From NCBI GenBank assembly GCA_044227145.1, contig JBGAFR010000002.1:48703-112702 (forward strand): a stretch of DNA of 64,000 bases, given 5' to 3'. The position numbers and the translations under genes were made by a program. The notes beneath the pieces were generated by a model. The model had not been told where the DNA came from and did no database searches. It worked only from the letters and a program-made list of their open reading frames with translations. Origin of the DNA: Lysobacteraceae bacterium (GTDB lineage Bacteria > Pseudomonadota > Gammaproteobacteria > Xanthomonadales > Xanthomonadaceae). This document shows, piece after piece, positions 45,821 to 64,000 of this stretch. How positions within the stretch are numbered: the first letter of the stretch is position 1; the number at the start of each line of letters is the position of its first letter.

Positions 45821-46410
45821 TTACAGGCCTTCAAAACTGAGGGCGTCCGAGGATATAGCGGACAACCTAAATTTCTGAATTTCAAGGACTGACAAGGGCT
45901 CCCGTCGCATGTGGGCGATTCTGTGACAAGTCGGGCATAGAGACACTAGTTCATCGATGTGGACTTCGCGAATTCCAGACTGAGCCACCGGCTTTAGATG
46001 GTGGCACTCGATCACGAACTTGCCCGACACCTCGAGACGAAATTTGCATGCCACGCATTGGTAGTTGTCGCGCCTTTTTCGCTCATCTGCAATCTGGGGG
46101 TTGCGTGCGTATTGGAGGGTTTTTCTGTCTATTTCGTAGCCTTCTATCGCGCGTGGGTCGTCTATCGGGTAGATTTCTTGTGACACCTCTGGGCGTAGTT
46201 TCGCTTTATGACTGAGCGTGCATGCGGCATTTCGTTTGGCGTGCTCGAAATGAGGTGTGTGCCCCTTTCTGCTCCCGTGCGGACCCACGGCCTCTCCGCA
46301 TTCCGTGCACGTAAAAAATAGTTTCCGCGAGGGGTGGAATTCTTGATCTGAATGGCCTCATCCACAGAGATCTCTCGGTCTTGGAACATACAGGTAACGG
46401 CTTTCGGCAC
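45821..46410 (-). pseudogene. Zn-ribbon + HNH endonuclease split across two frames (frameshifted or recoded)
   Basis: Frame A from GTG 46410 (VPKAVTCMFQDREISVDEA...GNY) continues in the -1 frame as FFTCTECGEAVGPH..PHFEH..C and CVAC...ECHH...LCPTCH (HNH). The switch is at T TTT TTA, 46318-46312. Confidence 0.7.
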
Positions 46411-46673
46411 AGAAAATCCCTTGAAGGTGAGTTCTAACTGGTTTGAGAAACACAATATGATGTGTAACGCGTTTCGGATATTGGTGGTCGCTAGTGAGAA
46501 GAATCGATATCTGTAAGGTGTGCTTTCCCGGAATCCCAATGGCCTACTGGTGATTGCCTGTCAGAAAGTGATTTTCGCTATCGATATATAATGCGTACTT
46601 ACACAATATCTTGAATCTGCCCCCGGCGACCCTTGGCTTCCACCTGTCAAATCCGACAGGTATGCCGCAACCC

Positions 46674-47642: not shown

Positions 47643-47837
47643 GGCTGCGCTCGCGGTTTCGGACGAACGGAGGGTTCCGCGTCGTTGTTGCAATGCAAAA
47701 TCAATGAGTTGCGCCGTATTCGACCTTGGTCGAAGTCGTTGTATTTGCATTTCTTATGAAACACATTGCCAAAACTGTGTTGTCAAATACAGTACCCGGA
47801 CGGATGGTGAGCCTCCCACGTCGTTCCGGAGCCACCC
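47643..47837. promoter_or_regulatory. AT-rich divergent promoter region between lysR and aceB
   Basis: AT-rich intergenic segment containing the palindrome TTCGACC-TT-GGTCGAA (47719-47734) and the inverted pair AATGCAAA/TTTGCATT. Confidence 0.45.
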
Positions 47838-49487
<1,650 letters not shown>

Positions 49488-49605: not shown

Positions 49606-50907
49606 ATGAAGACCACGCTCCCCACCGCCGAACAACTGAAGCTGGACTGGACCAACAATCCGCGCTGGGCCGGCGTGACCCGCCCGTACAGCGCCGAGGA
49701 CGTGGTCCGCCTGCGCGGCACGATCCCGGTCGACCACTCCATCGCCCGCCTCGGCGCCGAAAAGCTGTGGAAGTACCTGCAGACCGAGGACTTCGTGAAC
49801 GCGCTGGGCGCGCTCACCGGCAACCAGGCGATGCAGCAGGTCAAGGCCGGCCTCAAGGCGATCTACCTCAGCGGCTGGCAGGTCGCTGCCGACGCCAACA
49901 TCGCCGGCGAGATGTACCCGGACCAGTCGCTGTATCCGGCGAACTCGGTGCCGCAGGTGGTCAAGCGCATCAACAACACGCTGCTGCGCGCGGACCAGAT
50001 CCAGTGCGCCGAAGGCACCGGCGATGTCGATTTCCTGCAGCCGATCGTGGCCGACGCCGAGGCCGGTTTCGGCGGCGTGCTCAACGCGTTCGAGCTGATG
50101 AAGGCGATGATCGAGGCCGGCGCCTCGGGCGTGCACTTCGAGGACCAGCTCGCCAGCGTCAAGAAGTGCGGCCACATGGGCGGCAAGGTGCTGGTGCCGA
50201 CGCGCGAGGCCGTCGAGAAGCTCGTCGCCGCGCGCCTCGCCGCCGACGTCATGGGCACGCCGACGATCATCGTGGCCCGCACCGACGCCGAGGCCGCCGA
50301 CCTGCTGACCAGCGACATCGACCCGAACGATGTGCCGCACTGCACCGGCGAGCGCACCGTCGAAGGTTTCTACAAGACGAAGAACGGCCTCGACCAGGCG
50401 ATCAGCCGCGGCCTCGCCTATGCACCCTACGCCGATCTGGTGTGGTGCGAGACCGGCAAGCCGGATCTCGAGTTCGCGCGCAAGTTCGCCGAAGCGATCC
50501 ACGCGAAGTACCCCGGCAAGCTGCTGGCCTACAACTGCTCGCCGAGCTTCAACTGGAAGAAGAACCTCGACGACGCCACGATCGCGAAGTTCCAGAAGGA
50601 AATCGCCAGCTACGGTTACAAGTTCCAGTTCATCACCCTGGCCGGCTTCCACGCGCTGAACTACTCGATGTTCAACCTCGCGCACGGCTATGCGCGCCGC
50701 CAGATGAGCGCGTTCGTCGAGCTGCAGGAAGCCGAGTTCGCCGCTGCCGACAAGGGCTTCACCGCGGTGAAGCATCAGCGCGAAGTCGGCACCGGCTATT
50801 TCGACAGCGTGACCCAGACGATCCAGGGCGGGCAGTCGTCGACGGTGGCGCTGAAGGGGTCGACCGAGGAAGAGCAGTTCCACGATCGACCGGCGGCTGC
50901 TGCCTGA
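49606..50907 (+). CDS. aceA: Isocitrate lyase
   Basis: KKCGHMGGK signature, [22 protein letters not shown]. Confidence 0.97.
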
Positions 50908-50935
50908 ACGCAGCGAGCTGAACGCAACGACGCTT

Positions 50936-50972
50936 CATCCCCCTACCATGACCTTCGTCAGGGTGGGGGATG
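50936..50972. terminator. Stem-loop downstream of aceA
   Basis: CATCCCCC(T)ACC / GGTGGGGGATG stem with an inner TGAC-CTTC-GTCA hairpin; no clear U-tract. Confidence 0.45.
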
Positions 50973-51021
50973 GCGTCGGGTGTGCTGGAATGCGGAACCC
51001 CTCCGTTCGTCTGGATTTCGC

Positions 51022-51471
51022 ATGCGGATTCCGCTTTCCCTCGTTCTCCTCGCCGCGTCCACCTTCTGTACGCCCGCCTTCGCCGAAGACGCCGCCATCC
51101 TTTCGGTGACGCCCGACCAGATCCGCGCACAACAGGCCGATCTTCGCCAGGCCATCGAAAGGAAGTCCGGCAACTACGCCCAGTACAGCGAAGAGGAGCG
51201 CAAGACGATCCTCGCGCGCCAGGACGACGTCCTCGCCGTGCTCGGGGACAAGACGTCGATCGACGACCTCGGTCCGGAAGGCAAGGTCCGGCTCACGAAT
51301 GCGCTGGCAGCGGTCGACGCCGCGGTGAATCGCGCAGAGGACAACCGGATGATCTGCGAGATCGTCAAGCGGACCGGCTCGAATCGTTCGGAGCAGAAGT
51401 GCATGACCGTCGGCCAGCGCCGCCAGATGCGCGAGCGCCTGGAACGCAACGGCATCAGCACTTCGCGCTGA
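51022..51471 (+). CDS. Hypothetical exported protein
   Basis: Signal peptide MRIPLSLVLLAASTFCTPAFA; C-terminal MIC..KRTGSNR..KCMT motif. Confidence 0.7.
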   Translation: MRIPLSLVLLAASTFCTPAFAEDAAILSVTPDQIRAQQADLRQAIERKSGNYAQYSEEERKTILARQDDVLAVLGDKTSIDDLGPEGKVRLTNALAAVDAAVNRAEDNRMICEIVKRTGSNRSEQKCMTVGQRRQMRERLERNGISTSR

Positions 51472-51630
51472 GTCGAAGCGCGTCGCAGTAAGCGGCTGGC
51501 GTCGAGCCGGCCGCTTCGCTTTCAGGAGCAGGGCTTCTCGCGCGCACGATCCGTGAACCGTCCGGGCACGCGCGACGCATCATCGATCGCGACCGACCGG
51601 GGACACAGTCGCTCTGCGTGATCACGGACC

Positions 51631-52044
51631 TCAATCGACGTCCGGCGCCGGTTTGCGCGGCAGGCCGTCGCCCGGGTCCACCGCGGCCCAGTCCACGTGG
51701 GTGTCCCAGAACACATGCGCCATCGGCGCCTGGTCCGCGTCGCCGTCGAGGTTGGCCAGGGCGATGTGCAGCTCGCCCGGCCAGCGCTGAGAGCGGAAGA
51801 ACAGCGAACTGCCGCAGCGCGTGCAGAAGCCGCGCTCGGCGCCGGGCGAGGAGACGTACCAGCGCAGCGATCCGGCGGCCTCGTCGATGCGCACGCGGTC
51901 TTCCGCCATCCCGAACCAGGTGACGAACGCGGCGCCGTGCGCGCGCCGGCACATTGAACAGTGGCAGTGCGCGACCCACACGCTGGGCCAGTCCACGGTG
52001 AAGCGCACGTTGCCGCAGAGGCAGCCGCCGTGGGATGAGGCCAT
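51631..52044 (-). CDS. GFA (CENP-V/glutathione-dependent formaldehyde-activating) family protein
   Basis: GGCLCG, HCHCSMCRR and FCTRCGS zinc motifs. Confidence 0.9.
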   Translation of the reverse strand: MASSHGGCLCGNVRFTVDWPSVWVAHCHCSMCRRAHGAAFVTWFGMAEDRVRIDEAAGSLRWYVSSPGAERGFCTRCGSSLFFRSQRWPGELHIALANLDGDADQAPMAHVFWDTHVDWAAVDPGDGLPRKPAPDVD

Positions 52045-52119
52045 GTGGGTGCTCCGTGGTCGCGAGAGCGGCACCATCGCATGCGGTCGCCGCGACCGCC
52101 AGTTCCCGATCGGGCGCGC

Positions 52120-52599
52120 TCAGGCGGCCCGCGACGGGCTCGCGCGGTCGCCGCGTCGATATCCGATCGCCTCCGCCACATGCGGCCCGAGGATGTCGTC
52201 GCTGCCGGCCAGATCGGCGATGGTGCGGGCGACGCGCAGGATGCGGTGCATCGAACGCGCCGAGAGCTGCAGCAGGTCGATGGCGTTCTCCAGCATCGCC
52301 TGGTCATCCGGTGCCAACCGGCAAACGGCATTCGTCTGCGCCTGGTCGAGGTGGGCGTTCAGTCGCTCCGCGCGCCGCAGCTGGGCTGCGCGGGCGCGGA
52401 CGACGCGGCTGCGGACCGTCTCGCTGGATTCGCCGGGCAGGGCGTCCGGGCGCAATTCGGCGGGCGGCAGGCGCGGGACGTCGAGGTGGAGGTCGATGCG
52501 TTCCAGCAGCGGCCCCGAGATCTTGCCGCGATAGCGCAGGATCGCTTCCGGATGGCAGCGACACCGCCCAGACGGATCGCCCGCCCAGCCACAAGGGCA
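52120..52599 (-). pseudogene. comM: Displaced 3' fragment of comM/yifB (Mg-chelatase-like ATPase), copy 1
   Basis: Begins at CPCGWAGD...YRGKISGPLLERIDL...SARSMHRILRVARTIADL...EAIGYR. No 5' half is upstream; the frame runs into island sequence. Confidence 0.9.
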
Positions 52600-52615
52600 T
52601 AGAGGCGTTGCCTTT

Positions 52616-53059
52616 TTGCCATACGTGCAGATTCGGCGTAAGTCGTTGATCCAGAAAGCATGGGGCTTCGAGCTGCAGACCTTGGGCGAGCACATCCGCC
52701 GCCGCCGGTTCATGCTCGCCATCACCCAAGAGGAGGCAGCAGCGCTCCTCGGGGTGAACGCTTGGACGGTTCACAACTGGGAGACGGGGCAGAGGAAGCC
52801 CGAGATTCGGTTCATCCCGGCTCTCGTCGAGTTCCTCGGCTACGACCCGGAGCCAGTCGATGAGGGGACACTCGCCGGTCGGCTGGTCGCTAAGCGCCGG
52901 GAGCTTGGCCTTTCTCAGCGGGAGGCAGCCCGCTCCCTCCAGATCGACCCCGGCACCTGGGCCGGGTGGGAACTCGGGGCAAGGATCGCGCGGGAGGCCC
53001 ATAGGAGGGCGCTGGAGCGGTTCTTAGAGTCCCCCGGCACAGCTTCGCAACTTGCTTAG
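52616..53059 (+). CDS. Tandem XRE helix-turn-helix protein, copy 1
   Basis: Two HTHs (TQEEAAALLGVNAWTVHNWETG; SQREAARSLQIDPGTWAGWELG); TTG start abuts the comM junction. Confidence 0.75.
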   Translation: MPYVQIRRKSLIQKAWGFELQTLGEHIRRRRFMLAITQEEAAALLGVNAWTVHNWETGQRKPEIRFIPALVEFLGYDPEPVDEGTLAGRLVAKRRELGLSQREAARSLQIDPGTWAGWELGARIAREAHRRALERFLESPGTASQLA

Positions 53060-53241
53060 GGTCGCGGCTTATCGCCCAGATTCAGGGGGCCGAAGTGCCT
53101 CTCTCGAAAAGCTGATCATTTGTTGTGTCGGCAGCCATGCCGAGCATCGCTTTCCTGTTGAAGGATGGGTCAAAGTTAGCTAGTGTGGCTCGCAAATGGA
53201 CAGGAGGCGGCATGCCTCCGCGGAGCACGGGAGGAGGGCCT

Positions 53242-53712
53242 GTGGCCGATTTGAAGAACGTGTTTATCAGTCACGTCCATGAAGATGATTCTGGATTGCA
53301 GAAGCTGAAGGATCTGCTCGCGACGAAGGGGATGACCATTCGCGATGCATCGATCCATACGGGTAAGTTCAACAACGCCAAGGATCCGGACTACATCAAG
53401 TCCGGCATCCTTGCGCCACTGATCAAGTGGGCCGGAACTTTCATTTGTTACGTATCGCCGTTGACTAAGAACAGCGAATGGGTCAACTGGGAGATCGAGT
53501 ACGCCGCGAAGCAGGGCATGCGCATCATCGGCGTCTGGCAGCAAGGCGACAAAGGCTGCGAACTCCCGGATGCGTTGAAGGAGTACGCCGACGCCGTTGT
53601 GGGATGGAATGGCGATTCGATCATTGATGCCATCAATGGCAGGGACAGCTGTGAGATGCCCGATGGAAGTCCGTGGTCACCTGTCCCGCTCAAGAGGCAC
53701 CCCTGCGGGTGA
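53242..53712 (+). CDS. TIR-domain protein (DUF1863/ThsB-like), TIR1
   Basis: VFISH, SEWVNWEIEYA (catalytic Glu) and IIGV; GGAGG ribosome-binding site before GTG 53242. Confidence 0.85.
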   Translation: MADLKNVFISHVHEDDSGLQKLKDLLATKGMTIRDASIHTGKFNNAKDPDYIKSGILAPLIKWAGTFICYVSPLTKNSEWVNWEIEYAAKQGMRIIGVWQQGDKGCELPDALKEYADAVVGWNGDSIIDAINGRDSCEMPDGSPWSPVPLKRHPCG

Positions 53713-54332
53713 GACTCTACTCATACGTTGTTCGGTACGACAGCGGATTTGCGCCCAATCCGTTCTATGGATGGTGCACCCTAGCCACCTGCAAACCCAA
53801 GATTCGCAAATCGGCGCAGGTCGGCGATTGGATTGTCGGCACGGGCAGTGACGACAAAAAAGTTCGACGCGGGAAACACCTCGTCTATGCCATGCACGTC
53901 ACCGAGATACTGACGTTCAACGAATACGATAACGACCCACGCTTTGGATCAAAGAAGCCATATCGCACGGGCAGTCGTAAGCAGAGCTGCGGCGACAACA
54001 TCTACTTTCGGAATGCGAAGAATACGCAATGGTGTCAGCGCGACTCCTTTCATTCAAATGCCGACGGCACGCGACGCTCCGATCATGTTGCCCGCGACAC
54101 GGGCGTGAACCGGGTGCTATTGAGCGATGATTTCGTCTATTTTGGCGGCAGCGGGCCACGTATCCCAGAGAGGCTGATAGCCACCAATGGCCACTCTCTT
54201 TTTAAGAAAGGTCCAGGCTACTGTGTATTTGACGACCCGCAGTTTATCGCACAAGTGGAAAAGTGGGTCGCATCGCTTGGCGATCCTGGCTACCAGGGTG
54301 CCCCATTCGAATGGATATCGCTTCGTGAATAA
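53709..54332 (+). CDS. Nmad2 (nucleotide-modification-associated domain 2) protein
   Basis: LYSYVVRYDSGFAPNPFYGWCTLATCKPKIR...GDWIVG, GDNIY, VLLSDDFVYFG; GTGA overlap with TIR1. Confidence 0.75.
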   Translation: MRLYSYVVRYDSGFAPNPFYGWCTLATCKPKIRKSAQVGDWIVGTGSDDKKVRRGKHLVYAMHVTEILTFNEYDNDPRFGSKKPYRTGSRKQSCGDNIYFRNAKNTQWCQRDSFHSNADGTRRSDHVARDTGVNRVLLSDDFVYFGGSGPRIPERLIATNGHSLFKKGPGYCVFDDPQFIAQVEKWVASLGDPGYQGAPFEWISLRE

Positions 54333-55464
54333 GCCATCGATTACAAACGGTTCCATCCTGCTGTCGGACTATGCATCGCAGATCGTGCCGACCGATGTGC
54401 TCGATGCAATAGACTTGCGGCCGGTGCAACACGGTCTTTTTGGCGAGGTGGGCGGCATCATGTCAACGGCCAAGAAGCATATCCGGGACAAGAAGGGGTT
54501 TCCGGAATACCGCCGGGCTGCGGAAGAAGAGTTTGGCGACACGCTCTGGTATTTGGCCGCGTTGTGTCGTCGTTGCGGCATTGGATTGGATGCTGTCTTC
54601 GAGCAAGCGGTGGGTGACGGGAAATATGCAACGGCACTGGCTGCGAGTGATCTTGCAACGGGATCCATTGCCACGGTGGTGGTTCCGGTGACATCGCCCG
54701 AGCTGGATGCGACGCTTGCATCGCTGGGGGTGGCGACCGCAAAACTGATGCAGGGCCAGCCCTCGATGTCCGCATTAGTCAGCTTCGCAAGGCACTACCT
54801 TGATGCGCTTCATGCGACGGGGCTGACGTTTTCGAACGTCGTCCAAGCGAACTTGCGGAAGGCGCGCAGCGCATTCTTGGAACCAGAAATCGCTGACCTC
54901 ATCAACTTCGATGCTGAATTCAAAGAAGAAGAGCAGCTACCCCCTGTTTTTCGTATTCGAATCGACCAGCGGTCCAGCGGCAAAAGCTATCTTAAGTGGA
55001 ACGGCGTCTTCATCGGCGACCCTTTGACTGATAACATCGCTGATCCCGATGGCTACCGGTTTCACGACGTGTTTCATCTCGCAAATGCCGCTATTCTTCA
55101 CTGGTCACCGGTGTTCAGAGCACTTATCAAGCACAAGCGAAAAAGTAACCAGAAGTATGACGAAGAGCAGGATAGTGGCCGGGCAATCGTTGTCGAAGAA
55201 GGGCTGACGGCTTGGTTGTTTTCTCGTGCCAAGGCTTTGGATTACTTTGAGGGTCATGATCGCGTATCGTTGGGCATCCTCAAAACGGTCCAGGAATTTG
55301 TTGCTGGGTACGAGGTTGAGCGGTGCCCGATGAAGCTGTGGGAACGATCCATTCTTCAAGGGTATGACGTCTTTCGTCAGGTGCGTGAAGCGAAGGGCGG
55401 GTTTGTGATCGGTGATCGAAAAGCCAGGACTCTGCAATACGAACCACTGGAGGGCAAAGCATGA
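54325..55464 (+). CDS. MazG-like nucleotide pyrophosphohydrolase with a MazG_C domain
   Basis: GLFGEVG and EEEFGDTLWYLA acidic motifs; C-terminal DGYRFHDVFH...RKS...DSGRAIVVEEG. Confidence 0.8.
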   Translation: MNKPSITNGSILLSDYASQIVPTDVLDAIDLRPVQHGLFGEVGGIMSTAKKHIRDKKGFPEYRRAAEEEFGDTLWYLAALCRRCGIGLDAVFEQAVGDGKYATALAASDLATGSIATVVVPVTSPELDATLASLGVATAKLMQGQPSMSALVSFARHYLDALHATGLTFSNVVQANLRKARSAFLEPEIADLINFDAEFKEEEQLPPVFRIRIDQRSSGKSYLKWNGVFIGDPLTDNIADPDGYRFHDVFHLANAAILHWSPVFRALIKHKRKSNQKYDEEQDSGRAIVVEEGLTAWLFSRAKALDYFEGHDRVSLGILKTVQEFVAGYEVERCPMKLWERSILQGYDVFRQVREAKGGFVIGDRKARTLQYEPLEGKA

Positions 55465-56147
55465 GCGTTCATCCTTTCGTCAAGGCAGTATCGTCTCTGC
55501 GCTTTGAAAATGCATTTAACCCTTACTCTGATCGCTGCGAAGTGCATGATCGCCAGGACGCACCACAGCGCCGTGCGAAGGCATTGTCTGCGGTCGTCTC
55601 GAAGGCGACGGAGACAGCCGTTGATGCGGTGTGGATCGGTCGTGACCTTGGATACCGCGGTGGGCGACGGACGGGTCTTGCACTGACCGATGACGTACAC
55701 GTTTCTCGGCATGCAGAGCGCTGGAATGTGCGCGCAGAACGGCAGACGGTGGGAGAAGCCGTCTCCGAACGAACGGCTGCGGTGATATGGGGCATGCTCG
55801 ATCAGATCGATGAGCCCATATTTCTCTGGAATGTGTTTCCTTTGCACCCCCACGAAGCCGGATCACCGTTTACGAATCGTCAGCATAATGTGCGCGAGCG
55901 CCAAGCTGGAGAGGAAATCCTGAGCTTGTTGTTGGACTTGCTGAGGCCGCGCCGTGTCCTCGCAGTGGGCAACGATGCGTTTGGTGCCGCGGCGCGGGTC
56001 GCCAGCCAGTGCGCAGTGACGCTGGTTCGGCACCCCAGCTACGGAGGGCAACGTCAGTTTGAACGTCAGGTGGCAGATCTTTATGACTTGCGTGGACGCA
56101 ACGGCTCGTTCGCGTTCCCATGTCAAGAAGAAATGGCGCACGCCTAA
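55461..56147 (+). CDS. Uracil-DNA glycosylase superfamily protein
   Basis: FNPY, IGRDLGYRGGRRTGLALTD motif A, LWNVFPLHPH..NR, and VRHPSYGG motif B; ATGA overlap with MazG. Confidence 0.8.
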   Translation: MSVHPFVKAVSSLRFENAFNPYSDRCEVHDRQDAPQRRAKALSAVVSKATETAVDAVWIGRDLGYRGGRRTGLALTDDVHVSRHAERWNVRAERQTVGEAVSERTAAVIWGMLDQIDEPIFLWNVFPLHPHEAGSPFTNRQHNVRERQAGEEILSLLLDLLRPRRVLAVGNDAFGAAARVASQCAVTLVRHPSYGGQRQFERQVADLYDLRGRNGSFAFPCQEEMAHA

Positions 56148-56216
56148 CTAAGTGTGAGGTCGGTCGGTCTGCTGGTAACGGTGGCGTGCTAGCGAAATTA
56201 ATTGACTGGAATCAAT

Positions 56217-56798
56217 ATGGCGTTACTTTCAGAGGCGATGGTAAGGCAAGCGGCCGCACGCACTAAGGTTGTTGCTTCGATGGAAAGTGCAAGTGAAATC
56301 TTGCGTGAAGCACGGAAAACAACCCGAAGCAGCTTTGACATTTTCTTGTCCCACTCGAAGCTAGATAGCGACTTGGTCTTAGGAGTCAAATCTGTTCTCG
56401 AATCTATCGGGAAAACAGTCTACGTTGATTGGATTGATGATCCTCTGTTGGATCGTAGCAACGTAACGCCGAAGACTGCCGAAAAGCTTCGCATGCGTAT
56501 GCGTCAGTGCAAATCTCTTTTCTATGCGCATTCTGAAAATGCAACCACTTCGCGATGGATGCCGTGGGAAATCGGATATTTTGACGGCTTCAATTCAAAC
56601 GTGGCGATCTTGCCGATTTCCCGCAGCGAAAATCAGACCACCTTCGCTGGGGTTGAATATCTGGGCTTGTATCCGTATGTCGATGTAACCGGGCGTACCG
56701 TGTCTTCGGCAGGAACTCTCTATTTGCACCGTAATGCAGGCGACTACGCGGGGTTTGATCGGTGGGTCTTGTCGACAGACAAACTGCGCCCGCTCTAA
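56217..56798 (+). CDS. TIR-domain protein, TIR2
   Basis: FDIFLSHS, VYVDWIDD and SRWMPWEIGYFDG (catalytic Glu). Confidence 0.85.
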   Translation: MALLSEAMVRQAAARTKVVASMESASEILREARKTTRSSFDIFLSHSKLDSDLVLGVKSVLESIGKTVYVDWIDDPLLDRSNVTPKTAEKLRMRMRQCKSLFYAHSENATTSRWMPWEIGYFDGFNSNVAILPISRSENQTTFAGVEYLGLYPYVDVTGRTVSSAGTLYLHRNAGDYAGFDRWVLSTDKLRPL

Positions 56799-56834
56799 TG
56801 GCTTGACGAATTACTTACCTAGTGAGGTTGTGAT

Positions 56835-57974
56835 ATGGCCCTCTACGAGATAGCGGTGCTCGGAGATCCGACTGAAGAGCAATTGGACCTGTTGACGGAC
56901 GGATTGAAGACGGCAGCAAACGACTTTCAGCTTACATACGGAACAGACCTTCTCCTTCACATAAATCCGCACAAATTTGAGCCGGGGGATAGGTCGGCTG
57001 CCGTGGCCGTCTTCTTTGGTAGTCCCGATGTAGTGGCGACAGACCTTCAGGTGCATTTCGATACTTCCAGAATTCCTGTCTTACCTGTTGCATCAAGCGA
57101 GAAGCGCGTGGGGGCGGAGATTCCAGAGTCGCTGAAGACGATCAACTGCCTGCTTTACGACAAAGCGAGTGCGCAACTTGTGCCTGCCATATTGAGTAGT
57201 TTGGGGCTCATGTTGCGGACGCGCAGAGTTTTTTTAAGCTACAGAAGAACGGAGTCAACGCCAGCCGCAGTTCAGCTATTCGGCGAAATATCTGCGAGAC
57301 GTTTTGACGTGTTCCTCGATACGCATAGCGTGAACGTCGCGGAAGAATTCCAAGATGAATTGTGGCACCAGCTATGCGATTCGGATGTGCTCGTGTTGTT
57401 GCAGACGCCAGGATACTTTGAAAGTCGCTGGACAATGGCCGAGTGGGGCAGGGCTCTCTCAAAAGGAGTTGGCATACTCAGTGTCGATTGGCCTGATTCC
57501 ACGCCTTCGATCCATACAGGAACGGCGAGCCGCGTGGAGTTGATACGCTCGGAAATCAATGCAGATGGCACTTTGGCGGCATCGGCAGTGGAGAGAATCT
57601 GTCACCAGATTGAGAAAGTGAGAATTACAAGCCAAGCGGTAAGACACATCTCACTAATCACTTCTGTCCAGGATGCGGTTACCAAAATTGGCGGAAGACT
57701 TCTTCGCATCAGCGCGAATCGAACACTTCACGTAACGCTGGCTACAGGGCGAAAGATTGCAGTGCAGCCAAGAATAGGTGTGCCAACTTCCCTAACAGCC
57801 CAAGAGGCGCTCGATAGGGCTCAAGGAGACCATGCGGCGGTTGTGTACGATCATTTAGGGATTCGTCCGAACTGGCAAAAGCATCTACGTTGGCTAGGGG
57901 AGCATGTTCCATCGGCAAGATGGGTTAAAGCGAGTGAAGCGGGCTGGACATTCGCAGGATGGGAGACTCCATGA
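56835..57974 (+). CDS. Multidomain TIR protein, TIR3
   Basis: Central RVFLSYRR...DVFLD...DSDVLVLL..FESRWTMAEW, with uncharacterised N- and C-terminal alpha/beta domains. Confidence 0.8.
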   Translation: MALYEIAVLGDPTEEQLDLLTDGLKTAANDFQLTYGTDLLLHINPHKFEPGDRSAAVAVFFGSPDVVATDLQVHFDTSRIPVLPVASSEKRVGAEIPESLKTINCLLYDKASAQLVPAILSSLGLMLRTRRVFLSYRRTESTPAAVQLFGEISARRFDVFLDTHSVNVAEEFQDELWHQLCDSDVLVLLQTPGYFESRWTMAEWGRALSKGVGILSVDWPDSTPSIHTGTASRVELIRSEINADGTLAASAVERICHQIEKVRITSQAVRHISLITSVQDAVTKIGGRLLRISANRTLHVTLATGRKIAVQPRIGVPTSLTAQEALDRAQGDHAAVVYDHLGIRPNWQKHLRWLGEHVPSARWVKASEAGWTFAGWETP

Positions 57975-58585
57975 GCGCCATTTTTCTATCAGCAAGCATC
58001 CCTGTTGCAGGGCGTGGCACCTACTATGAGGATGCTGATCCTTTCCTCATACAGTTCGCGGTGAGGGAACTCCTTGTCGTTGCATTAGGAAGGCGTCCGA
58101 TTGTGTGGGGTGGGCATCCTGCTATCACGCCTATGGTGTGGAGCGTGTGCGAAGACCTAGGTGTTCAGTATGCGCAATCCGTGCTGCTCTTCCAGAGCAA
58201 ACTCTTTCAGGACTTCTTCCCACAAGAGAACGAACGTTTTGCAAATGTTCGTTATGTCGATGCAGTCCAAGATGATCGAGAGAGAAGCCTTCAATCTATG
58301 CGGAAAAGCATGATGGAGGGTGAGTTTGAGGCGGGTGTTTTTATTGGCGGCATGAATGGGGTTGAAGAGGAGTGCGATCTCTTCATGCAGTTGCACCCTC
58401 GCGCCAAGATCATTGCGCTCGGCTCTCCTGGTGGTGCTGCAAAGCGGATCGCCAAGAAACGCGATGAGGACATTGAACGAATAGACTACCTACGCCTATT
58501 TGCAGAGCGCCTTGAAATAGATACAACCGAGCCGCGAAATTCACGTGTTTTTGAGAACGATCATATCGCTAGGCCAAGCTTCTAA
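57971..58585 (+). CDS. Stand-alone SLOG-domain protein
   Basis: IFLSASIP, IVWGGHPAIT, SLQSMR, GVFIGGMNGVEEE and GSPGGAA; ATGA overlap with TIR3. Confidence 0.8.
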   Translation: MSAIFLSASIPVAGRGTYYEDADPFLIQFAVRELLVVALGRRPIVWGGHPAITPMVWSVCEDLGVQYAQSVLLFQSKLFQDFFPQENERFANVRYVDAVQDDRERSLQSMRKSMMEGEFEAGVFIGGMNGVEEECDLFMQLHPRAKIIALGSPGGAAKRIAKKRDEDIERIDYLRLFAERLEIDTTEPRNSRVFENDHIARPSF

Positions 58586-58628
58586 TGTCTCAAATAAAAG
58601 GGTCAGGGCAATTTTCGTCAAGACTTCT

Positions 58629-59108
58629 TCATGCTGCCCTTGTCGGAGTCGCCCTCTCCCCGCGCCGATAACCGATGGCTTCCGCAACGTGCGGGCCGAG
58701 GATATCGGCACTTCCGGCGAGGTCGGCGATGGTGCGGGCCACGCGGAGGATTCGGTGCATCGAACGCGCCGAGAGTTGCAGCAGGTCGATCGCGTTCTCC
58801 AGCATGGATTGATCATCGGGCGCGAGCCGGCACACCGCGTTCGTTTCGGATTGATCCAGATGCGCGTTGCAGCGGCCGGCGCGTTGTCGCTGCACTTCGC
58901 GCGCACGGACGACGCGGGTGCGGACGACGTCGCTGGATTCGCCCGCGGGTGCGTCGGGGCGCAGTTCGGCGGGCGACAGTCGCGGCACGTCGAGATGCAG
59001 GTCGATGCGTTCGAGCAGCGGCCCGGAGATCTTGCCGCGATAGCGTGCGATCGCTTCGGGATGGCAGCGGCAGCGGCCGGACGGATCGCCGGCCCAGCCG
59101 CAGGGGCA
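58629..59108 (-). pseudogene. comM: Displaced 3' fragment of comM/yifB, copy 2
   Basis: CPCGWAGD...ISGPLLERIDL...EAIGYR; same 480-bp length as copy 1 with synonymous divergence. Confidence 0.9.
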
Positions 59109-59577
59109 TAGAGGCGTTGCCTTTTTGCCATACGTGAGGATTCGGCGTAAGTCGCTGATTCAGAAAGCATGGGACTTCGAGCCGAAGAGCTTGGGCGACC
59201 ACATCCGCCGTCGCCGGCTCATGCTCGCCATCACCCAAGAGGAGGCGGCGCAGCGCCTCGGCGTGAACGCCTGGACGGTTCACAATTGGGAGACGGGGCA
59301 GAGGAAGCCCGAGATTCGGTTCATCCCTGCCCTTGTCGCATTCCTCGGCTATGACCCGGAGCCGGTCGATGAGGGGACGCTCGCCGGTCGGCTGGTCGCT
59401 AGGCGGCGTCAGCTTGGCCTCTCTCAGCGCGAGGCAGCCCGTTCCCTCCAGATCGACCCCGGCACATGGGCTGGGTGGGAGCTTGGGGCCAGTATCGCTA
59501 GGGAAGCCCACAGGAGGGCGGTGGAGGGGTTCTTAGAGAACCCCGGCACAGCTTCGCAACTTGCTCAAGGTCGCGGC
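58629..59577. repeat. Direct repeat copy 2 (comM 3' fragment + double-HTH gene)
   Basis: Colinear with 52120-53068. Confidence 0.9.
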
Positions 59578-59583
59578 CGATGA
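59125..59583 (+). CDS. Tandem XRE helix-turn-helix protein, copy 2
   Basis: Near-identical paralog of 52616-53059; the TAG stop is replaced by CAA, extending the ORF by 5 codons. Confidence 0.75.
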   Translation: MPYVRIRRKSLIQKAWDFEPKSLGDHIRRRRLMLAITQEEAAQRLGVNAWTVHNWETGQRKPEIRFIPALVAFLGYDPEPVDEGTLAGRLVARRRQLGLSQREAARSLQIDPGTWAGWELGASIAREAHRRAVEGFLENPGTASQLAQGRGR

Positions 59584-59784
59584 TGGTGCGGAGCGGCGTC
59601 CCGGTGGACGCTTCGGCCGTGCTGCCGGGGTGGAGACAGGATGCCTCGGGCGCATGCCGGGGGCTATCAGGGAAAGCCGGTATCGGGGGTAGGGGTTTTC
59701 TGACGCGACCCGTCACAAGCTCGCACGGTCGGCTCGGTGATGGGCTCGGACTTATGAAAGCTAGGAAAGGCGCCGTTAGGTCAC

Positions 59785-59812
59785 AAAAGACGACGCCCAC
59801 CGGAGTGGGCGT
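59785..59812 (-). terminator. Intrinsic terminator after the YjzC-like gene
   Basis: Stem ACGCCCAC-CGGA-GTGGGCGT, followed on the minus strand by CTTTT. Confidence 0.6.
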
Positions 59813-59839
59813 GCCCTCTTCCCTGACGTAGCCACGACC

Positions 59840-60010
59840 TCAGGCGTACTGGGTCAAGACCCAGGTAACCGCCTGACCGTTGTAGGGCGGCATGCGGTTG
59901 CCCTTCGCGATCGGAGCGGTCGTGTTGTAGCCACTCGGCTTCCAGACGCCACTCTCCGGGCAGGTTTCGCCCGTGCGGGCAGTCGTTCCAATCGGCTTGC
60001 GGGTACTCAT
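59840..60010 (-). CDS. YjzC-like small protein (56 aa)
   Basis: MSTRKPIGTTARTGETCPESGVW...APIAKGNRMPPY..VTWVL pattern; followed by a terminator. Confidence 0.65.
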   Translation of the reverse strand: MSTRKPIGTTARTGETCPESGVWKPSGYNTTAPIAKGNRMPPYNGQAVTWVLTQYA

Positions 60011-60059
60011 AGATACAATCCTCAGCCAAGCCCGCCGGGAGTATTCCCGACGACTAAAG

Positions 60060-60101
60060 CTTGACGGAAGCGACAATAACATAATTGTCGACTCCGTCAA
60101 G
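60060..60101. promoter_or_regulatory. Palindromic operator overlapping divergent -35 boxes
   Basis: CTTGACGGAAGCGACAAT-AACATA-ATTGTCGACTCCGTCAAG (16/18 inverted match); TTGACG on both strands. Confidence 0.7.
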
Positions 60102-60136
60102 TATGCTTTGACAACGACCAGACCAAGGGGCCGGCA

Positions 60137-60469
60137 ATGGCATCAGACTTTCCCTCCCGCCTAAAGGCGACCCGTGAGCTACGTGAACTAACCCAGGGAG
60201 ACTTAAGCAAGCTTGCAGGTCTACCAGCGACCACGATCTCTCACTTCGAGAGTGGTTCTCGAAAGCCATCGTTTGATAACCTGAGGCGGCTGGCTAAGGC
60301 GTTAAGTGTCAGCACTGATTACTTAATGGGTATCACTGATACACCCGATGCAACCACCGCCGCTACGCGGATAGCAAGACATCTCCCAAATGCCACTGAA
60401 GACGAGATATCGATGCTAGAAGCTGTAGCAAAATCACTAGCTGATAGGAGACCGCCAAGCGATGGATAG
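60137..60469 (+). CDS. XRE-family HTH repressor
   Basis: RLKATRELRELTQGDLSKLAGLPATTISHFESGSRKPSFDNLRRLAKAL. Confidence 0.9.
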   Translation: MASDFPSRLKATRELRELTQGDLSKLAGLPATTISHFESGSRKPSFDNLRRLAKALSVSTDYLMGITDTPDATTAATRIARHLPNATEDEISMLEAVAKSLADRRPPSDG

Positions 60470-61322
60470 TTTGCGGCGTCGAACGATTGAGGCAAAAGCA
60501 GAAGAGCTTTTGCATGATGCAGGGATAGCAGCTTTACCAGTCAAGCCGCAACAATTGGCCGAACATCTTGGCATTCAAGTACACGCTAAGCCTGCTTCGA
60601 TCAAGGGTGCCTCCGGTTGGTTGGTTCGATCCGGGGACGAGTTCGCAATCATCTACGCTACATATATCGATAGCATCGGCTTTCAACACTTCAGCATAGC
60701 CCACGAGTTGGGCCATTACATGCTGGATGGTCATCCCGAGCATGTGTTCCGCAATGGTGGCGAGCATGCGTCGCATGCTGGTTTCGAAGCAGCGGATCAC
60801 ATTGAGCGAGAAGCCGATCACTTCGCAGCATGCCTGCTCATGCCGAAGGAGTTGTGCCGATCTCTGATTGGCCGCAGTCGCGACGGATTAGAGGCAGTTC
60901 TCCATATTGCCAATCAATGCGAAACGTCATTGACCGCCGCTGCGCTCCGCTATGCAGAGATTGGGCAGCTTCCAGTCGGCATCGTCCAAGCTTACCAAGG
61001 CAAAGTCGAATTCTGTGCGGCCTACCCTATGCAAGCGCATGTTGGTTGGGCTAGACCGCTTCTGCGCAATGCAAAAGTCCCCGTTGACAGTGCAACGAGT
61101 CGCCTGTCTCAAGACCAGGAAGCGATTCTGCGAGGCGGTGAAGATAGCGACAGCAGTCAAGCGAGCGATTGGTTTCCAGGAGCAGATTCTAAAGCCGGGC
61201 TCATAGAGGAAGTGATCGGTCTCGGCAAGTTCGGTCGGACGCTGACCATTCTCACTCTCGATCCGGACGCAGCAGGCACGGATGAAGATGATGATGGTTG
61301 GGAAGAGCCACGCTTTCGCTAG
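60462..61322 (+). CDS. ImmA/IrrE (CapP-like) zinc metallopeptidase
   Basis: FSIAHELGHY HEXXH motif, EREADHFAACLLMP and ETSLTAAALRY; overlaps the XRE stop. Confidence 0.88.
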   Translation: MDSLRRRTIEAKAEELLHDAGIAALPVKPQQLAEHLGIQVHAKPASIKGASGWLVRSGDEFAIIYATYIDSIGFQHFSIAHELGHYMLDGHPEHVFRNGGEHASHAGFEAADHIEREADHFAACLLMPKELCRSLIGRSRDGLEAVLHIANQCETSLTAAALRYAEIGQLPVGIVQAYQGKVEFCAAYPMQAHVGWARPLLRNAKVPVDSATSRLSQDQEAILRGGEDSDSSQASDWFPGADSKAGLIEEVIGLGKFGRTLTILTLDPDAAGTDEDDDGWEEPRFR

Positions 61323-61339
61323 CGAGATTTGAGACTGAC

Positions 61340-62095
61340 ATGGCGGCCTTACCATATCTAATCGCATATCTCGGAGCAGGGTTCTTGCTCGCGTGCGGAT
61401 TTTTAATGAACAACAAGATTTCTTGGCCGAAGAAATTTCTGGTGGCCGGAATTATGATGGTCTTTTGGCCGCTATTTGCATTTGCGGTGCCGGAATCATT
61501 TTTCAAGCCAAGCAAGGAAGAGGCAGCGGCCAGAAACGGAGATCGGCTAACAATAGAGCTAACAAAGCTCTTGCAAGGAGAGTCTGACGGCCTATCTCAG
61601 GTCTTGGGAGAAAAAGTCGCTCGTGTAGCGAAAGGGGGCGATAAAGCAGTTACTTACTTCGGTGTCCCAGGTAGCTTAGATGATGTGCTAGAGGCATTCT
61701 GGGATGAAAATATCCCACCATCGATATACATCAGTCTGCTTTGGGCGCGGGATGAGCTAAAAGAACATGAGCCTCACGATGGGCCGCTTTTCAGTCGCCG
61801 TCCACCTGATTGGTACGTGGGATTTTCACACGAATTTCTCAAGTGCATAGCAAAAGCTGATGGCAAGTTAAGGGGGCGCATACTGGATGCAATCGGCAAG
61901 ATATCTGAGGCTCCTATGGAAGCCGTAGGCGATACTGTCAAGCCGCTTACCAGCAATCTGTCTGGGCTCTGGCGCTATCGAATAGGTGATGATCGTCTTG
62001 TGTATTTCCCGGATCACGAAGAAAAGAAGATCACGTTGATCTTTTTTGGGGCTCGGGGCGATGTGTATAAAAAGGTGTCGCCGCTAGACTCATGA
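61340..62095 (+). CDS. Membrane-anchored protein with a C-terminal RelE/ParE toxin domain
   Basis: Two N-terminal TM helices; C-terminal WYVGFSHEFLK...RILDAI...KPLTSNLSGLWRYRIGDDRLVY...GARGDVY. Confidence 0.7.
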   Translation: MAALPYLIAYLGAGFLLACGFLMNNKISWPKKFLVAGIMMVFWPLFAFAVPESFFKPSKEEAAARNGDRLTIELTKLLQGESDGLSQVLGEKVARVAKGGDKAVTYFGVPGSLDDVLEAFWDENIPPSIYISLLWARDELKEHEPHDGPLFSRRPPDWYVGFSHEFLKCIAKADGKLRGRILDAIGKISEAPMEAVGDTVKPLTSNLSGLWRYRIGDDRLVYFPDHEEKKITLIFFGARGDVYKKVSPLDS

Positions 62096-62145
62096 TCCGA
62101 TCATATCCCGTATGCCATCTGTCAAAGTCTCTGTGGAGGTCGATA

Positions 62146-62433
62146 ATGAAGCAGGTAGACACAAACAAGCTTCGAGAAATTATTGAGTCGGAAGTAAAAT
62201 CGGACACCGAGCAGATGTTCTACAAGGATGCGTTCGCGGCTGGCTGCTACCTTCACAAAGAAGGGCATCACGCGGCAGCGGGCAAGCTATGTAACGGTGT
62301 GCTCAAGTCGCTTGGGTACAACAAGAGGAAGACGTACTTTGCTGAGTTGCTTGATAACATGAGTGGCAATGAAGACCTCTACGCGCAGTGCATGTGGGCT
62401 CATCATGAGCTCAATGAGCTTTTCCGTTCTTGA
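62146..62433 (+). CDS. Hypothetical protein (95 aa)
   Basis: GGAGG ribosome-binding site before ATG 62146; no recognised motif. Confidence 0.55.
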   Translation: MKQVDTNKLREIIESEVKSDTEQMFYKDAFAAGCYLHKEGHHAAAGKLCNGVLKSLGYNKRKTYFAELLDNMSGNEDLYAQCMWAHHELNELFRS

Positions 62434-62975
62434 CCTCTGAGGTGCGCGTGATTACCGATCACTTGAAGGCAAAGGTTCTGGCATCTGTCGCTAGCGGCAT
62501 GTCGATCTCGGAGGCTGCTGCGCGGCATGGCATCGATGTTAGCCAGGCCAGGAATGGTATTGCGCGCATCTGTAGGGATAGCAAGCTGCCGTCTGAGGTA
62601 TCCAAGATACATGCCAATCCAGCGCCCTACAAAAAGGCCGCAGAGAGGGTCATAAACACGCCTCGCTATGGATTGAGGAAAGCCCTGCGCAAAGACATGG
62701 AGTATCAATTGCAGCTTCAGTCTGCCGACCAAATTGAGCCGGGCTACATCTCCAATCTGACTGCGGCTATGATTCTCGATGCTGGAATCACGGATGTTGG
62801 CCTTGCTGAGATTCAAGAATGGATGGCTGGCTATGACGCAAGTCTCAAGAAGAAAGCCCCAGGGAGTGCCGAGCATCTAGTTTTGGTCAGAAGAGCAATG
62901 TATGTGCTCGACTCCTTTGGTGTTGAGGTGGAAAGCGCAAAGAAGCAGATTGAATCCTTTACGCAGGAAGACTGA
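62430..62975 (+). CDS. Hypothetical protein with a possible N-terminal HTH
   Basis: GMSISEAAARHGIDVSQARNGIARIC resembles an HTH; start codon uncertain. Confidence 0.55.
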   Translation: MTSEVRVITDHLKAKVLASVASGMSISEAAARHGIDVSQARNGIARICRDSKLPSEVSKIHANPAPYKKAAERVINTPRYGLRKALRKDMEYQLQLQSADQIEPGYISNLTAAMILDAGITDVGLAEIQEWMAGYDASLKKKAPGSAEHLVLVRRAMYVLDSFGVEVESAKKQIESFTQED

Positions 62976-63015
62976 TCACTTGCAAGATTGGCAGCAAGAA
63001 TGGAGTCATGGAATT

Positions 63016-63774
63016 ATGAACAAGAAAAAAGCACTAGCGCTCTTTGCCATGATGCTCAGTGTCATTGGCATGGCTGCGTGTGCGCAACCTACTCCAAGCA
63101 CTCAGGCTCGATCAGAAGTATCCGATCCAGCGACAGAGGAAGCTGCACGGGTAGCCGAAGCGGCCGACGCGGCTGCAATAGCGTCAGGATCAGAGGATGG
63201 CAAGAAGGAGGGTGTGCCCGTGACTACAGAATCAATGTCTGAGAAGACAGTAGGCCCATCAATTGCATCAACGTTGCTGGAAGAGCGCATCTTGCGCTTT
63301 GTTGACGGCATACGCTCGTCACCAGATATGACGCGCAGTCGTCTCGAAGAGGTGATGCAGGTGAGGCTAGAGCAGGATACAGAACTGCAAGGATGGTGGT
63401 GGTACACCGGTGCCGCTGATGAAAAGTGGCAATACACGATAAAGATTGACGAGAGAAGCAAGGATGATTCTCTCCCGCTAGTCACAATCAGCTTTTCGGC
63501 GGGAGACGTCGAAGGAAATGCAAGGGCGACGGTCTGCACCTATGAGCTTGAAGCCTTCGCTCAATCGCTTATCGCGATTGGATACACCCGCCATTCCGGC
63601 TGGAAGCAGCCAGGTGGGCATCTTGTATTCAGTAGGGAACGGGCTGGTACGCGGTTCAGCTCGACCGTGAAAGTGCGCAAGTACATCCAGCAGACCGGAT
63701 CAGGCGTGAACGATTACCAGTATTGCGTCTACGCAATCAGCATGTCGGCTGGAGAGCTACTCGATGGCGAGTAA
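63016..63774 (+). CDS. Lipoprotein, candidate immunity protein
   Basis: MNKKK plus hydrophobic core plus MAAC lipobox; 3' end overlaps the next ORF by 11 bp. Confidence 0.6.
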   Translation: MNKKKALALFAMMLSVIGMAACAQPTPSTQARSEVSDPATEEAARVAEAADAAAIASGSEDGKKEGVPVTTESMSEKTVGPSIASTLLEERILRFVDGIRSSPDMTRSRLEEVMQVRLEQDTELQGWWWYTGAADEKWQYTIKIDERSKDDSLPLVTISFSAGDVEGNARATVCTYELEAFAQSLIAIGYTRHSGWKQPGGHLVFSRERAGTRFSSTVKVRKYIQQTGSGVNDYQYCVYAISMSAGELLDGE

Positions 63775-64000
63775 GCTGCCGCCCCACTTGCAACACCTTA
63801 CCGAAGGATTGCCGGCGAATCGACGTGCAGAGGTCGAAGAGTCGATCCTCTCTTCCAACTACCTGCAAACCCGCCTTGCAGAAGAGTCAAAGGCAGATCG
63901 ACTCGATCAGATCCGCATTCTCCCGCCGGGCAGCAATTCGGGTGGTCACTTCAGTGAGACAGATAAGTCGATCTACATTGACGCGGGCTTGTTCTCTGAT
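63764..64000 (+). CDS. 5' part of a protein of unknown function, candidate secreted effector (partial)
   Basis: ATG 63764, open to the window end (MASKLPPHLQHL...GGHFSETDKSIYID). Confidence 0.5.
   Translation, partial: MASKLPPHLQHLTEGLPANRRAEVEESILSSNYLQTRLAEESKADRLDQIRILPPGSNSGGHFSETDKSIYIDAGLFSD

Follow-up and report, generated by a model that had tools for sequence, protein, structure and literature searches.

A composite island in comM of a Lysobacteraceae bacterium, probably built by one family of large serine recombinase elements and containing a recombinase-less defence cassette

Repeated comM and double-HTH blocks

We analysed a 64,000-nt stretch (hereafter, the window) of a contig of a Lysobacteraceae bacterium (GCA_044227145.1, JBGAFR010000002.1, positions 48,703 to 112,702), in which the 3' end of the gene comM occurs twice, each time back to back with a gene for a double helix-turn-helix (HTH) protein of the XRE type. 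Our best explanation is that the window holds the left two-thirds of a composite island in comM, built by one family of large serine recombinase (LSR) elements. Between 48 and 64 kb, a repeat search revealed one direct-repeat family with copies at 52120 and 58629 (spacing 6509 bp). MAFFT aligned 52120-53070 with 58629-59580 without gaps, and the similarity ended sharply on both sides of these blocks of approximately 950 bp. Each block consists of a 480-nt comM 3' fragment starting at the CPCG codons, followed by the double-HTH gene, and about 33 nt at the joint are the same in both copies (Table 1). An earlier sequence-only reading had described this layout, with no recombinase between the blocks, and the repeat search, MAFFT and Pfam agree with it.

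Both comM fragments comprise 159 codons and a stop codon, begin with LCPCGWAGDPSGRCRC, match Pfam Mg_chelatase and Mg_chelatase_C and correspond to residues 346-504 of ComM from a full-length relative. The left copy (A) and the right copy (B) share approximately 80% DNA identity, with a ratio of non-synonymous to synonymous divergence (dN/dS) of 0.083 and a dS of 0.93; neither contains a frameshift or an internal stop. The HTH proteins (approximately 145-150 aa, two HTH_3/HTH_31 domains) are encoded on the plus strand 16-25 bp past the comM fragment, and their genes, HTH1 and HTH2, are approximately 89% identical at the DNA level (dN/dS 0.175). The GC content is approximately 0.67-0.70 to the left of 52120 vs 0.52-0.63 to the right.

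Junctions and att sites

The junctions were surveyed in at least three Lysobacteraceae genome loci and 77 metagenome loci (numbered with the prefix L). Among 95 XRE starts, 67 were located at most 60 bp from a minus-strand comM fragment beginning at residue 342-346, and the junction held even where the XRE and comM sequences were only 43-55% and 38-61% identical, respectively, to the queries taken from the window and a Lysobacter relative. The element end facing comM, CAG(G/A)G..GCGTTGC(C/T)(C/T)TTTTGC, was kept in all 83 distinct junctions and was not found elsewhere in the loci scanned; a motif scan of the loci likewise placed the core motif GCGTTGCCTTTTTGC at these junctions only.

Comparison across loci yielded the four site types: attP in L042 (...GCAACGAATCCT CA GGGACGCGTTGC...), attR in L092 (...AATGAATCCT CA GGGGTTCATTGCGGC...), attB in L002 (...GCCGCAGGGG CA GGGGTTCATCGCGGC...) and attL in the window (...GCCGCAGGGG CA TAGAGGCGTTGCC...). 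They have in common only the central CA(GGG), in which CA corresponds, when read in the direction of comM, to the TG of the first CPCG Cys codon. The exchange thus centres on a single dinucleotide, as in LSR elements generally, and attP has the form of an imperfect inverted repeat, the arms of the L042 site agreeing in 14 outer positions. The window junctions consist of a B arm and a P' arm, and the P arm of the Lysobacter-type attR of L091, combined with the window P' arm, forms an imperfect palindrome with 17 of 23 positions matching. Judged from this comparison, both window blocks appear to be attL junctions of a very large family of comM-specific LSR elements, and it is in this form that the earlier proposal of tandem accretion at one point of comM has been borne out.

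Other site-specific systems were considered and set aside. An integron-like array is contradicted by the lack of an IntI tyrosine integrase and of attC sites, the only inverted repeat being the LSR attP of unrecombined relatives. By eye, the junction is unlike the dif consensus, and a XerCD/dif-type site was rejected; neither the window units nor the listed families of the cassettes described below include tyrosine recombinases. A Tn7-like comM island of the AbaR type would carry rve or Tns genes, none of which are present in the window units; the junctions show exchange at a shared dinucleotide and no target duplication of the Tn7 type. No tRNA or tmRNA target occurs in the window.

A mini-element in L087 (8560-9320), not located beside comM, has suffered an internal deletion through which its P' arm and shortened double HTH now directly meet the last approximately 65 LSR codons and a P-type arm; nearly only the two element ends are left.

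The double HTH as the probable detached tail of a recombinase gene

In three loci (L042, L074 and L067), the XRE is preceded not by comM but by an LSR with Resolvase and Recombinase domains. The LSR open reading frame (ORF) there runs in frame and without stops through GCAAAAGAGCAACG-N13-CGTTGCTCTTTTGC, a perfect 14-bp inverted repeat, into the double HTH. Because the att-site comparison puts the exchange point inside this LSR-HTH ORF, integration would split the recombinase gene. The opposite product is found in L091 and L092, where a split LSR (ORFs of 524-540 aa) directly abuts a 346-residue comM 5' fragment ending AAMNP*, with BMFP and P-II genes after it; the same two genes follow intact comM in relatives.

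The sequence-only reading had treated the tandem-XRE gene as a gene in its own right. This needs correction: the arrangement in the three unrecombined elements indicates that it is the C-terminal part of the LSR ORF, cut off by integration, and probably not an independent element gene. HTH domains, purifying selection and an in-frame TTG or GTG start, as would suit a stand-alone XRE regulator, are present, yet the same sequence forms the LSR C-terminus in unrecombined elements. Purifying selection on the cassette HTH (dN/dS as above) fits either a regulatory role or a need to stay usable as a recombinase tail.

The family is large. With the 701-aa LSR-HTH ORF as query, more than 5600 proteins were retrieved at E<=1e-40, in length classes of approximately 650-685 aa with HTH_3/HTH_31 and approximately 515-610 aa without. 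Among the best 120 LSR homologues, at least 53 end in ...QGF(I/M)AA..., the antisense of the comM codons AAMNP, approximately 20 are fused LSR-HTH forms and none is identical to the LSR of the window locus. Among 1.84 billion representatives searched, the HTH protein had 32 matches at E<=1e-30 and 1735 at E<=1e-10, with fused and split forms mixed; approximately 170 close database relatives of the XRE protein were found, several of them on one and the same contig.

Cassette 1 and the repair of comM

The inner unit, designated cassette 1, lies between the two window junctions (attL1 and attL2), and no recombinase was found with Pfam among its seven or eight genes, in agreement with the earlier view that the 6509-bp unit is non-autonomous. 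Bounded by att-type sites of a related autonomous element and devoid of recombination and transfer genes of its own, it resembles a cis-mobilisable element (CIME). The cargo, which the earlier reading had also regarded as defence genes, proved to be largely of that kind by Pfam and PADLOC. Between 53125 and 58585 it comprises three TIR proteins (one of ThsB type) together with Nmad2, MazG/MazG_C, UDG-like and SLOG proteins, and resembles a defence set based on nucleotide modification or nucleotide signalling more than it does a standard Thoeris system.

Similar cassettes without a recombinase, one to four in number, were found in relatives beside an intact, chimeric comM. In a Lysobacter metagenome-assembled genome (L002), a displaced comM 3' end, an XRE and three genes (one caspase-like) precede an intact comM of 504 aa; a 4.15-Mb Lysobacter assembly (L009) has the same layout with six genes. 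One 378-kb contig (L008, L011, L012) contains four tandem units between chromosomal genes and intact comM, with no recombinase, and two metagenome contigs (L061, L034) hold minimal units with one or two cargo genes. We collected 15 fully delimited cassettes with 55 cargo proteins: Resolvase and Phage_integrase are absent from the Pfam families listed for them, tblastn with the LSR found none, and one IS3-type transposase is the sole such gene among those families. Their cargo is rich in TIR, ThsB, SLOG, caspase, Lamassu and Pycsar-cyclase matches.

The GC content at third codon positions (GC3) of intact comM in L002, L003, L008 and L009 is 0.83-0.90 over the first 1035 nt and 0.51-0.66 over the last 480 nt, and the break sits at the CPCG codons. 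The gene is thus a chimera, and the cassettes therefore brought their own comM 3' ends; L002, L008 and L009 hold cassettes and L003 only a partial XRE remnant. The cassette-borne 3' ends are more alike among themselves than to native-looking copies and form a related low-GC3 group. In six loci (L002, L008, L009, L017, L061 and L081), a diverged 3' copy continues the host comM 5' part in frame, with the native 3' end displaced, as in gene-restoring elements; the 3' end fused to the host comM 5' part in relatives is copy-B-like. In the window, copy A looks native in composition (GC3 0.85) and copy B (0.77) does not. Copy B is the replacement 3' end carried by cassette 1; it has the gene-restoring structure but was itself displaced when unit 2 arrived.

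In L027 (58-1361), L036 (10103 and 13525), L050, L055, L049 and L064, the XRE is preceded by approximately 480 bp that no longer score as comM and have CNCG for CPCG and early stops; these stretches are probably old, decayed displaced comM 3' copies. A second target gene upstream of some XREs was considered and set aside, the sequences looking like decayed comM 3' copies or deletions. The L027 unit, an HTH with a decayed comM 3' end, is seemingly free of cargo. In L022 (9499-11437; the same as L023), a comM 5' part cut at approximately residue 267 comes directly after a displaced comM 3' end and an XRE; the locus has decayed, and comM is left unrestored.

Table 1. Features of the comM island and its left edge in the window
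Feature	Coordinates	Strand	Basis
GFA-family gene, native neighbour downstream of comM, left edge of island	51631-52077	-	Pfam GFA
comM 3' copy A, displaced, B half of attL1; 159 codons, CPCGW to stop	52120-52599	-	Pfam Mg_chelatase/Mg_chelatase_C; translation; GC3 0.85
Crossover dinucleotide CA of attL1 (inferred)	52598-52599	.	attP/attB/attL/attR comparison; 83 distinct junctions
P' arm of attL1, TAGAGGCGTTGCCTTTTTGCCATAC	52600-52624	+	Motif scan; junction list; near-palindrome with L091 P arm
Unit 1 (cassette 1), non-autonomous: HTH remnant, cargo, own comM 3' end	52600-59108
HTH1, double-HTH ('XRE') ORF, first gene of cassette 1; start TTG 52616 or GTG 52625	52616-53059	+	Pfam HTH_31/HTH_3, two stretches
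ThsB-type TIR protein	53125-53712	+	Pfam ThsB_TIR 2e-20; PADLOC ThsB
Nmad2 (nucleotide-modification-associated domain 2)	53673-54332	+	Pfam Nmad2 2e-73
MazG-like protein with MazG_C; true start probably internal	54187-55464	+	Pfam MazG_C 2e-78
UDG-superfamily-like protein, weak match	55461-56147	+	Pfam UDG 3e-5
Two TIR-domain proteins (56202-56798 and 56835-57974)	56202-57974	+	Pfam TIR_2
SLOG cluster-3 protein	57959-58585	+	Pfam LD_cluster3 3e-63
comM 3' copy B, right end of cassette 1, B half of attL2	58629-59108	-	Translation; approx. 80% DNA identity to copy A; GC3 0.77
Crossover dinucleotide CA of attL2 (inferred)	59107-59108	.	attP/attB/attL/attR comparison; source-sample unitig
P' arm of attL2, same as attL1 P' arm	59109-59133	+	Alignment; junction list; motif scan
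HTH2, double-HTH remnant of the split LSR gene of element 2	59125-59583	+	Pfam; circular permutation vs L042, L094
Left part of element 2: HTH_3 gene (60137-60469), M78 peptidase (60462-61322), YoeB-like (61298-62095), small ORFs	59584-64000	+	Pfam

Element 2, an autonomous element that probably leaves comM split

Unit 2, which starts at 59109, is an autonomous element (element 2) of approximately 22-23 kb. A Logan contig of the source sample is 100% identical to window positions 59298-64000 and runs on for 16.5 kb, and encodes, in order beyond the window, an X-Tfe-type effector, a trio of DUF87/TrwB-like ATPases, RadC and an aldehyde dehydrogenase, then a second, unrelated LSR (minus strand), a 443-aa protein, an HTH_3 protein, a 177-aa protein and the start of an LSR on the plus strand. 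The sequence-only reading had expected a recombinase beyond 64 kb, and the search for one thus met with success: the LSR starts at window-equivalent position approximately 80,156, i.e. approximately 16-17 kb past the window end and approximately 21 kb downstream of HTH2. Its 129 N-terminal codons at the contig end give a Pfam Resolvase match, and 126 of these residues align to the L042 LSR with 86% identity. An LSR element is defined by a Resolvase, a Recombinase and a zinc-ribbon domain; the Resolvase N-terminus is what is seen here, and full-length relatives have Resolvase and Recombinase.

The gene order of element 2 is that of L042 and L094 rotated at the LSR/HTH point, a circular permutation which would be the outcome predicted by attP x attB recombination. 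L092 shares the right-hand backbone (the second LSR, genes for 439 and 176 aa and the LSR), and the LSR there abuts the comM 5' part. No comM-like sequence was found with tblastn in the readable 21.4 kb of element 2. Judged from its relatives, this element probably arrived without a comM 3' copy and would leave the gene split; as in L091 and L092, a comM 5' fragment rather than an intact comM would be expected after its LSR. The earlier claim that each element brought a comM 3' copy has therefore to be divided: it stands for the inner unit, whose copy B displaced the native-looking copy A, and autonomous relatives of unit 2 speak against it, as they carry no replacement.

These observations bear on the alternative that every unit is a gene-restoring island which was inserted by a recombinase of the tyrosine or serine type and supplies a new 3' end for comM, that the sequence beyond the window contains this recombinase as well as an intact comM, and that the XRE is an ordinary regulator. 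Cassette 1 and many relatives do carry a 3' replacement completing comM, and a serine recombinase is present beyond the window. Nevertheless, in autonomous relatives that share the LSR and the backbone, comM stays cut at residue 346 without any replacement, the tblastn search of element 2 was negative and unrecombined elements have LSR and XRE in one continuous ORF; we consider this alternative unlikely.

The second LSR (531-550 aa) is 19% identical to the comM-specific LSR and is encoded on the opposite strand, beside a conserved protein of approximately 440 aa without a Pfam match (L090 13995-17079, window-equivalent approximately 75.8-78.9 kb; L042 1751-4650; L092 1-2603). It could represent a nested element or a second integration system, and might explain the fused LSR-HTH genes in long contigs. 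At 1-22058 of L094 (GCA_964638585.1, a 185-kb contig) lies an element that shares this backbone and whose LSR-HTH gene is fused and intact (685 aa); its neighbour is a gene with a DHHA1 domain. The HTH_3 and M78 peptidase genes of element 2 (60137-61322) are an ImmR/ImmA-like pair, a type known from inducible elements. In L006 (4467-6017, window-equivalent 63764-65314), an element 2 protein has the XVIPCD domain of Xanthomonadales type IV secretion effectors.

Distribution in metagenomes and strain variation

Cassette 1 (53029-58866) was detected at approximately 98-99% identity in three metagenomes from other studies, derived from sludge, an aquatic environment and the plastisphere; in sludge, a single 6417-nt contig spans 52451-58866. 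The sludge run lacked element 2, and in all three metagenomes the chromosomal flank (50934-52334) was low or absent. These near-identical copies with other flanks are a circumstantial hint of co-excision or transfer with the autonomous neighbour.

In the source sample, the chromosomal flank has a depth of approximately 67-72 vs approximately 48 for the island. A 97-nt unitig of lower depth (approximately 20) is copy-B-like, with 2 mismatches in 60 nt, and continues past 59108 into the comM 5' side (GGGATTCATCGCGGCC... / GGGATTCATCGCGGCCACC...), i.e. in the uninterrupted attB form. If these unitigs are linked, the simplest reading is a coexisting strain with an uninterrupted comM junction. This attB-form junction and the circular permutation of element 2 relative to L042 and L094 are indirect hints of integration and excision.

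Further to the left of the island, isocitrate lyase, malate synthase and a LysR regulator (Pfam ICL, MS_TIM-barrel, LysR) are ordinary chromosomal genes. Contig depth at 50000-50933 (isocitrate lyase) was 75-545 in all four metagenomes examined, with many variant unitigs; this is a conserved gene common to many community members and is located outside the island. At 44000-48000, the GC content dips to 0.62-0.63 around genes for a DUF2007 protein, a 217-aa ORF and a LysR regulator, and this region may be a small older insertion.

Proposed history of the island and alternative explanations

Taken together, we regard as probable an array of LSR elements in comM in which the LSR-HTH gene is split and the recombinase-less cassette 1 stands beside the autonomous element 2. 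In a free or unrecombined element, the LSR gene would run through attP, an imperfect inverted repeat around CA, into its C-terminal double HTH. Recombination of attP with attB (the TG of the first CPCG Cys codon in comM) would cut this ORF, so that the displaced comM 3' end and the double HTH stand back to back on the left (attL) and the catalytic LSR part meets the comM 5' part on the right (attR). The order of events is shown by the window itself, cassette 1 having come before element 2: native comM would first have received the cassette, with copy A displaced and copy B completing comM and rebuilding attB, and element 2 would later have entered the rebuilt attB, displacing copy B.

For the movement of cassettes, two possible routes remain that use canonical reactions only, and we favour co-excision with the neighbouring element. 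Here, the LSR of the neighbour would recombine attL1 with attR, excising cassette and element as one circle (spread in cis); because both P' arms are identical, the LSR ORF would re-fuse in frame to the cassette HTH. After integration elsewhere, the outer element alone might leave (attL2 x attR), and the cassette and a repaired chimeric comM would remain. Alternatively, a cassette circle could recombine with the attR of a resident element, a route whose expected layout was not exemplified among the loci. As to the first cassette, an element may on a rare occasion have integrated at a pseudo-site shortly past the end of comM and later have lost its recombinase by decay; that the cassette-borne 3' ends are related is the reason for assuming a rare origin and subsequent diversification.

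Several points weigh against this reconstruction. The available contig stops 129 codons into the LSR of element 2, short of the remainder of that gene, attR and the comM 5' part, and neither an excised nor a composite circle nor an attP junction was observed for the window locus. Canonical LSR chemistry accounts neither for the first comM 3' end of a cassette nor for the entry of a lone cassette circle, which would be of attL type, into attB; serine integrases are not known to recombine an attL-type site with attB (PMC3783163). The fused LSR-HTH gene inside the long contig of L094 (185 kb) means that elements can reside somewhere without using this attP. Finally, the cargo overview covers the 25 most frequent or strongest Pfam families, and a weakly matching recombinase could escape it.

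A further proposal is more tentative, and we give it somewhat less than an even chance: the LSR gene would be rewritten at each recombination, integration detaching the double HTH and excision re-fusing it, and the cassettes would exploit this switch. Splitting and re-fusion could control directionality or expression from within the gene itself, either in place of a dedicated directionality factor or in addition to one. On co-excision, a cassette would contribute its in-frame HTH half as the tail of its neighbour's recombinase, and its comM 3' end would repair the host gene and rebuild attB for the next arrival, making the array of defence cassettes expandable.

Since different cargo lies between the same flanks, exchange by homologous recombination between the conserved HTH and comM 3' flanks is suggested, and it probably contributes to cargo turnover. 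A stronger version would make the locus a hotspot of homologous recombination only, with one ancient insertion followed by RecA-dependent swaps (e.g. through natural transformation) and no site-specific recombinase. It would draw on the conservation of the flanks, which are under purifying selection, on the relatedness of the low-GC3 comM 3' ends, and on the variable cargo between constant flanks, unequal exchange between the 480-bp repeats being able to add or delete units. However, the breakpoints match the centre of the LSR attP palindrome to the nucleotide, in lineages whose comM genes are only approximately 45-55% identical, the compositional break in comM is sharp at the same point, and an autonomous LSR element of the same family occupies the very next slot. 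Mobilisation by homologous recombination alone, which the sequence-only reading had also entertained, thus leaves the same-dinucleotide breaks at every junction unexplained, and we think it improbable, slightly more so than an array of gene-restoring islands. An assembly artefact, chance repeat or recent tandem duplication of one unit can practically be dismissed, as the sequence-only reading had argued: although the window comes from a metagenome bin and short unitigs stop at the repeats, the copies differ by approximately 20% (comM part) and 11% (HTH part), mostly at synonymous positions, the gene content of the two units is wholly different, the depth of approximately 48 is even over the region in public contigs of the source sample, and the same layout occurs in independent genomes and recurs in dozens of unrelated contigs.

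Comparison with known systems

comM ranks among the genes most often struck by mobile elements, and such insertions are usually read as sabotage of natural transformation. In reviews, comM has been described as a frequent target of 'various MGEs' (mobile genetic elements) that inactivate it (PMC12378983, PMC11472951). In the LSR family proposed here, insertion at a single nucleotide position has contrary effects on comM: autonomous elements interrupt the gene, whereas small cassettes, mostly with anti-phage cargo, repair it and re-arm the site. It offers a testable route for building and moving defence islands that lack an integrase, and a natural serine integrase whose domain make-up depends on the state of its att site bears on directionality control and on tools for genome engineering. 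A prior account of this LSR family, its split gene or the cassettes was not found in the literature searched, which included few subscription journals. As far as we could find, the combination of these properties in one system is new, as are a bacterial serine integrase ORF that spans attP and loses a double HTH on integration, and recombinase-less, target-repairing defence cassettes that rebuild attB.

The Tn7-like AbaR/Tn6022 islands of Acinetobacter are alike in using comM as target and in carrying accessory genes. The family described here differs in having no Tns genes, another site in comM, no target-site duplication and junctions of serine-recombinase type.

Phage 21 and e14, which reside in icd, are gene-restoring prophages. 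In Dehalococcoides, islands with serine recombinases pile up in tandem at ssrA (PMC3146451). Both are similar to the comM array in that a diverged 3' copy of the target is brought in and displaced copies are left as direct repeats. In both, however, the unit that brings the replacement also encodes the recombinase, whereas in the comM array the replacement belongs to the recombinase-less class and the recombinase-bearing class, judged from relatives, appears to lack it.

The CIMEs of streptococcal integrative and conjugative or mobilisable elements encode no recombinase and are delimited by att sites of the kind used by a related autonomous element. They share with cassette 1 the position of a non-autonomous unit in tandem with an autonomous element at the same target, with co-excision via the outer sites possible in principle. 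The CIME systems depend on tyrosine recombinases, and their attL and attR remain substrates for integration; in the comM array, attB is rebuilt only via the cassette's copy of the target 3' end.

Among serine recombinase elements, Listeria A118 (comK), SPbeta (spsM), skin (sigK) and Bxb1 (groEL1) are alike in the Resolvase/Recombinase/zinc-ribbon enzyme, in a short, imperfectly palindromic attP with a central dinucleotide and in site-specific entry into a conserved coding sequence, the gene being split by an autonomous element. Unlike them, the comM family has its attP inside the recombinase ORF, with the double HTH lost on integration, and is accompanied by recombinase-less, target-repairing cassettes. 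In engineered fusions of integrases with recombination directionality factors, a module on the C-terminus of a serine integrase is reported to alter which att pairs are recombined (Olorunniji et al. 2017, PMC5737554). Those fusions are artificial, and the natural double HTH is so far a hypothetical directionality module.

In fuselloviruses of the SSV1 type, the att site lies inside the integrase gene, which is split by integration and restored by excision. The comM-specific LSR is similar in having its att site inside the integrase gene; the SSV1-type enzymes are tyrosine integrases with tRNA targets and are inactivated by the split. In contrast, the comM-specific LSR keeps its full catalytic and DNA-binding core (524-540 aa in L091 and L092), and only the extra HTH part is detached.

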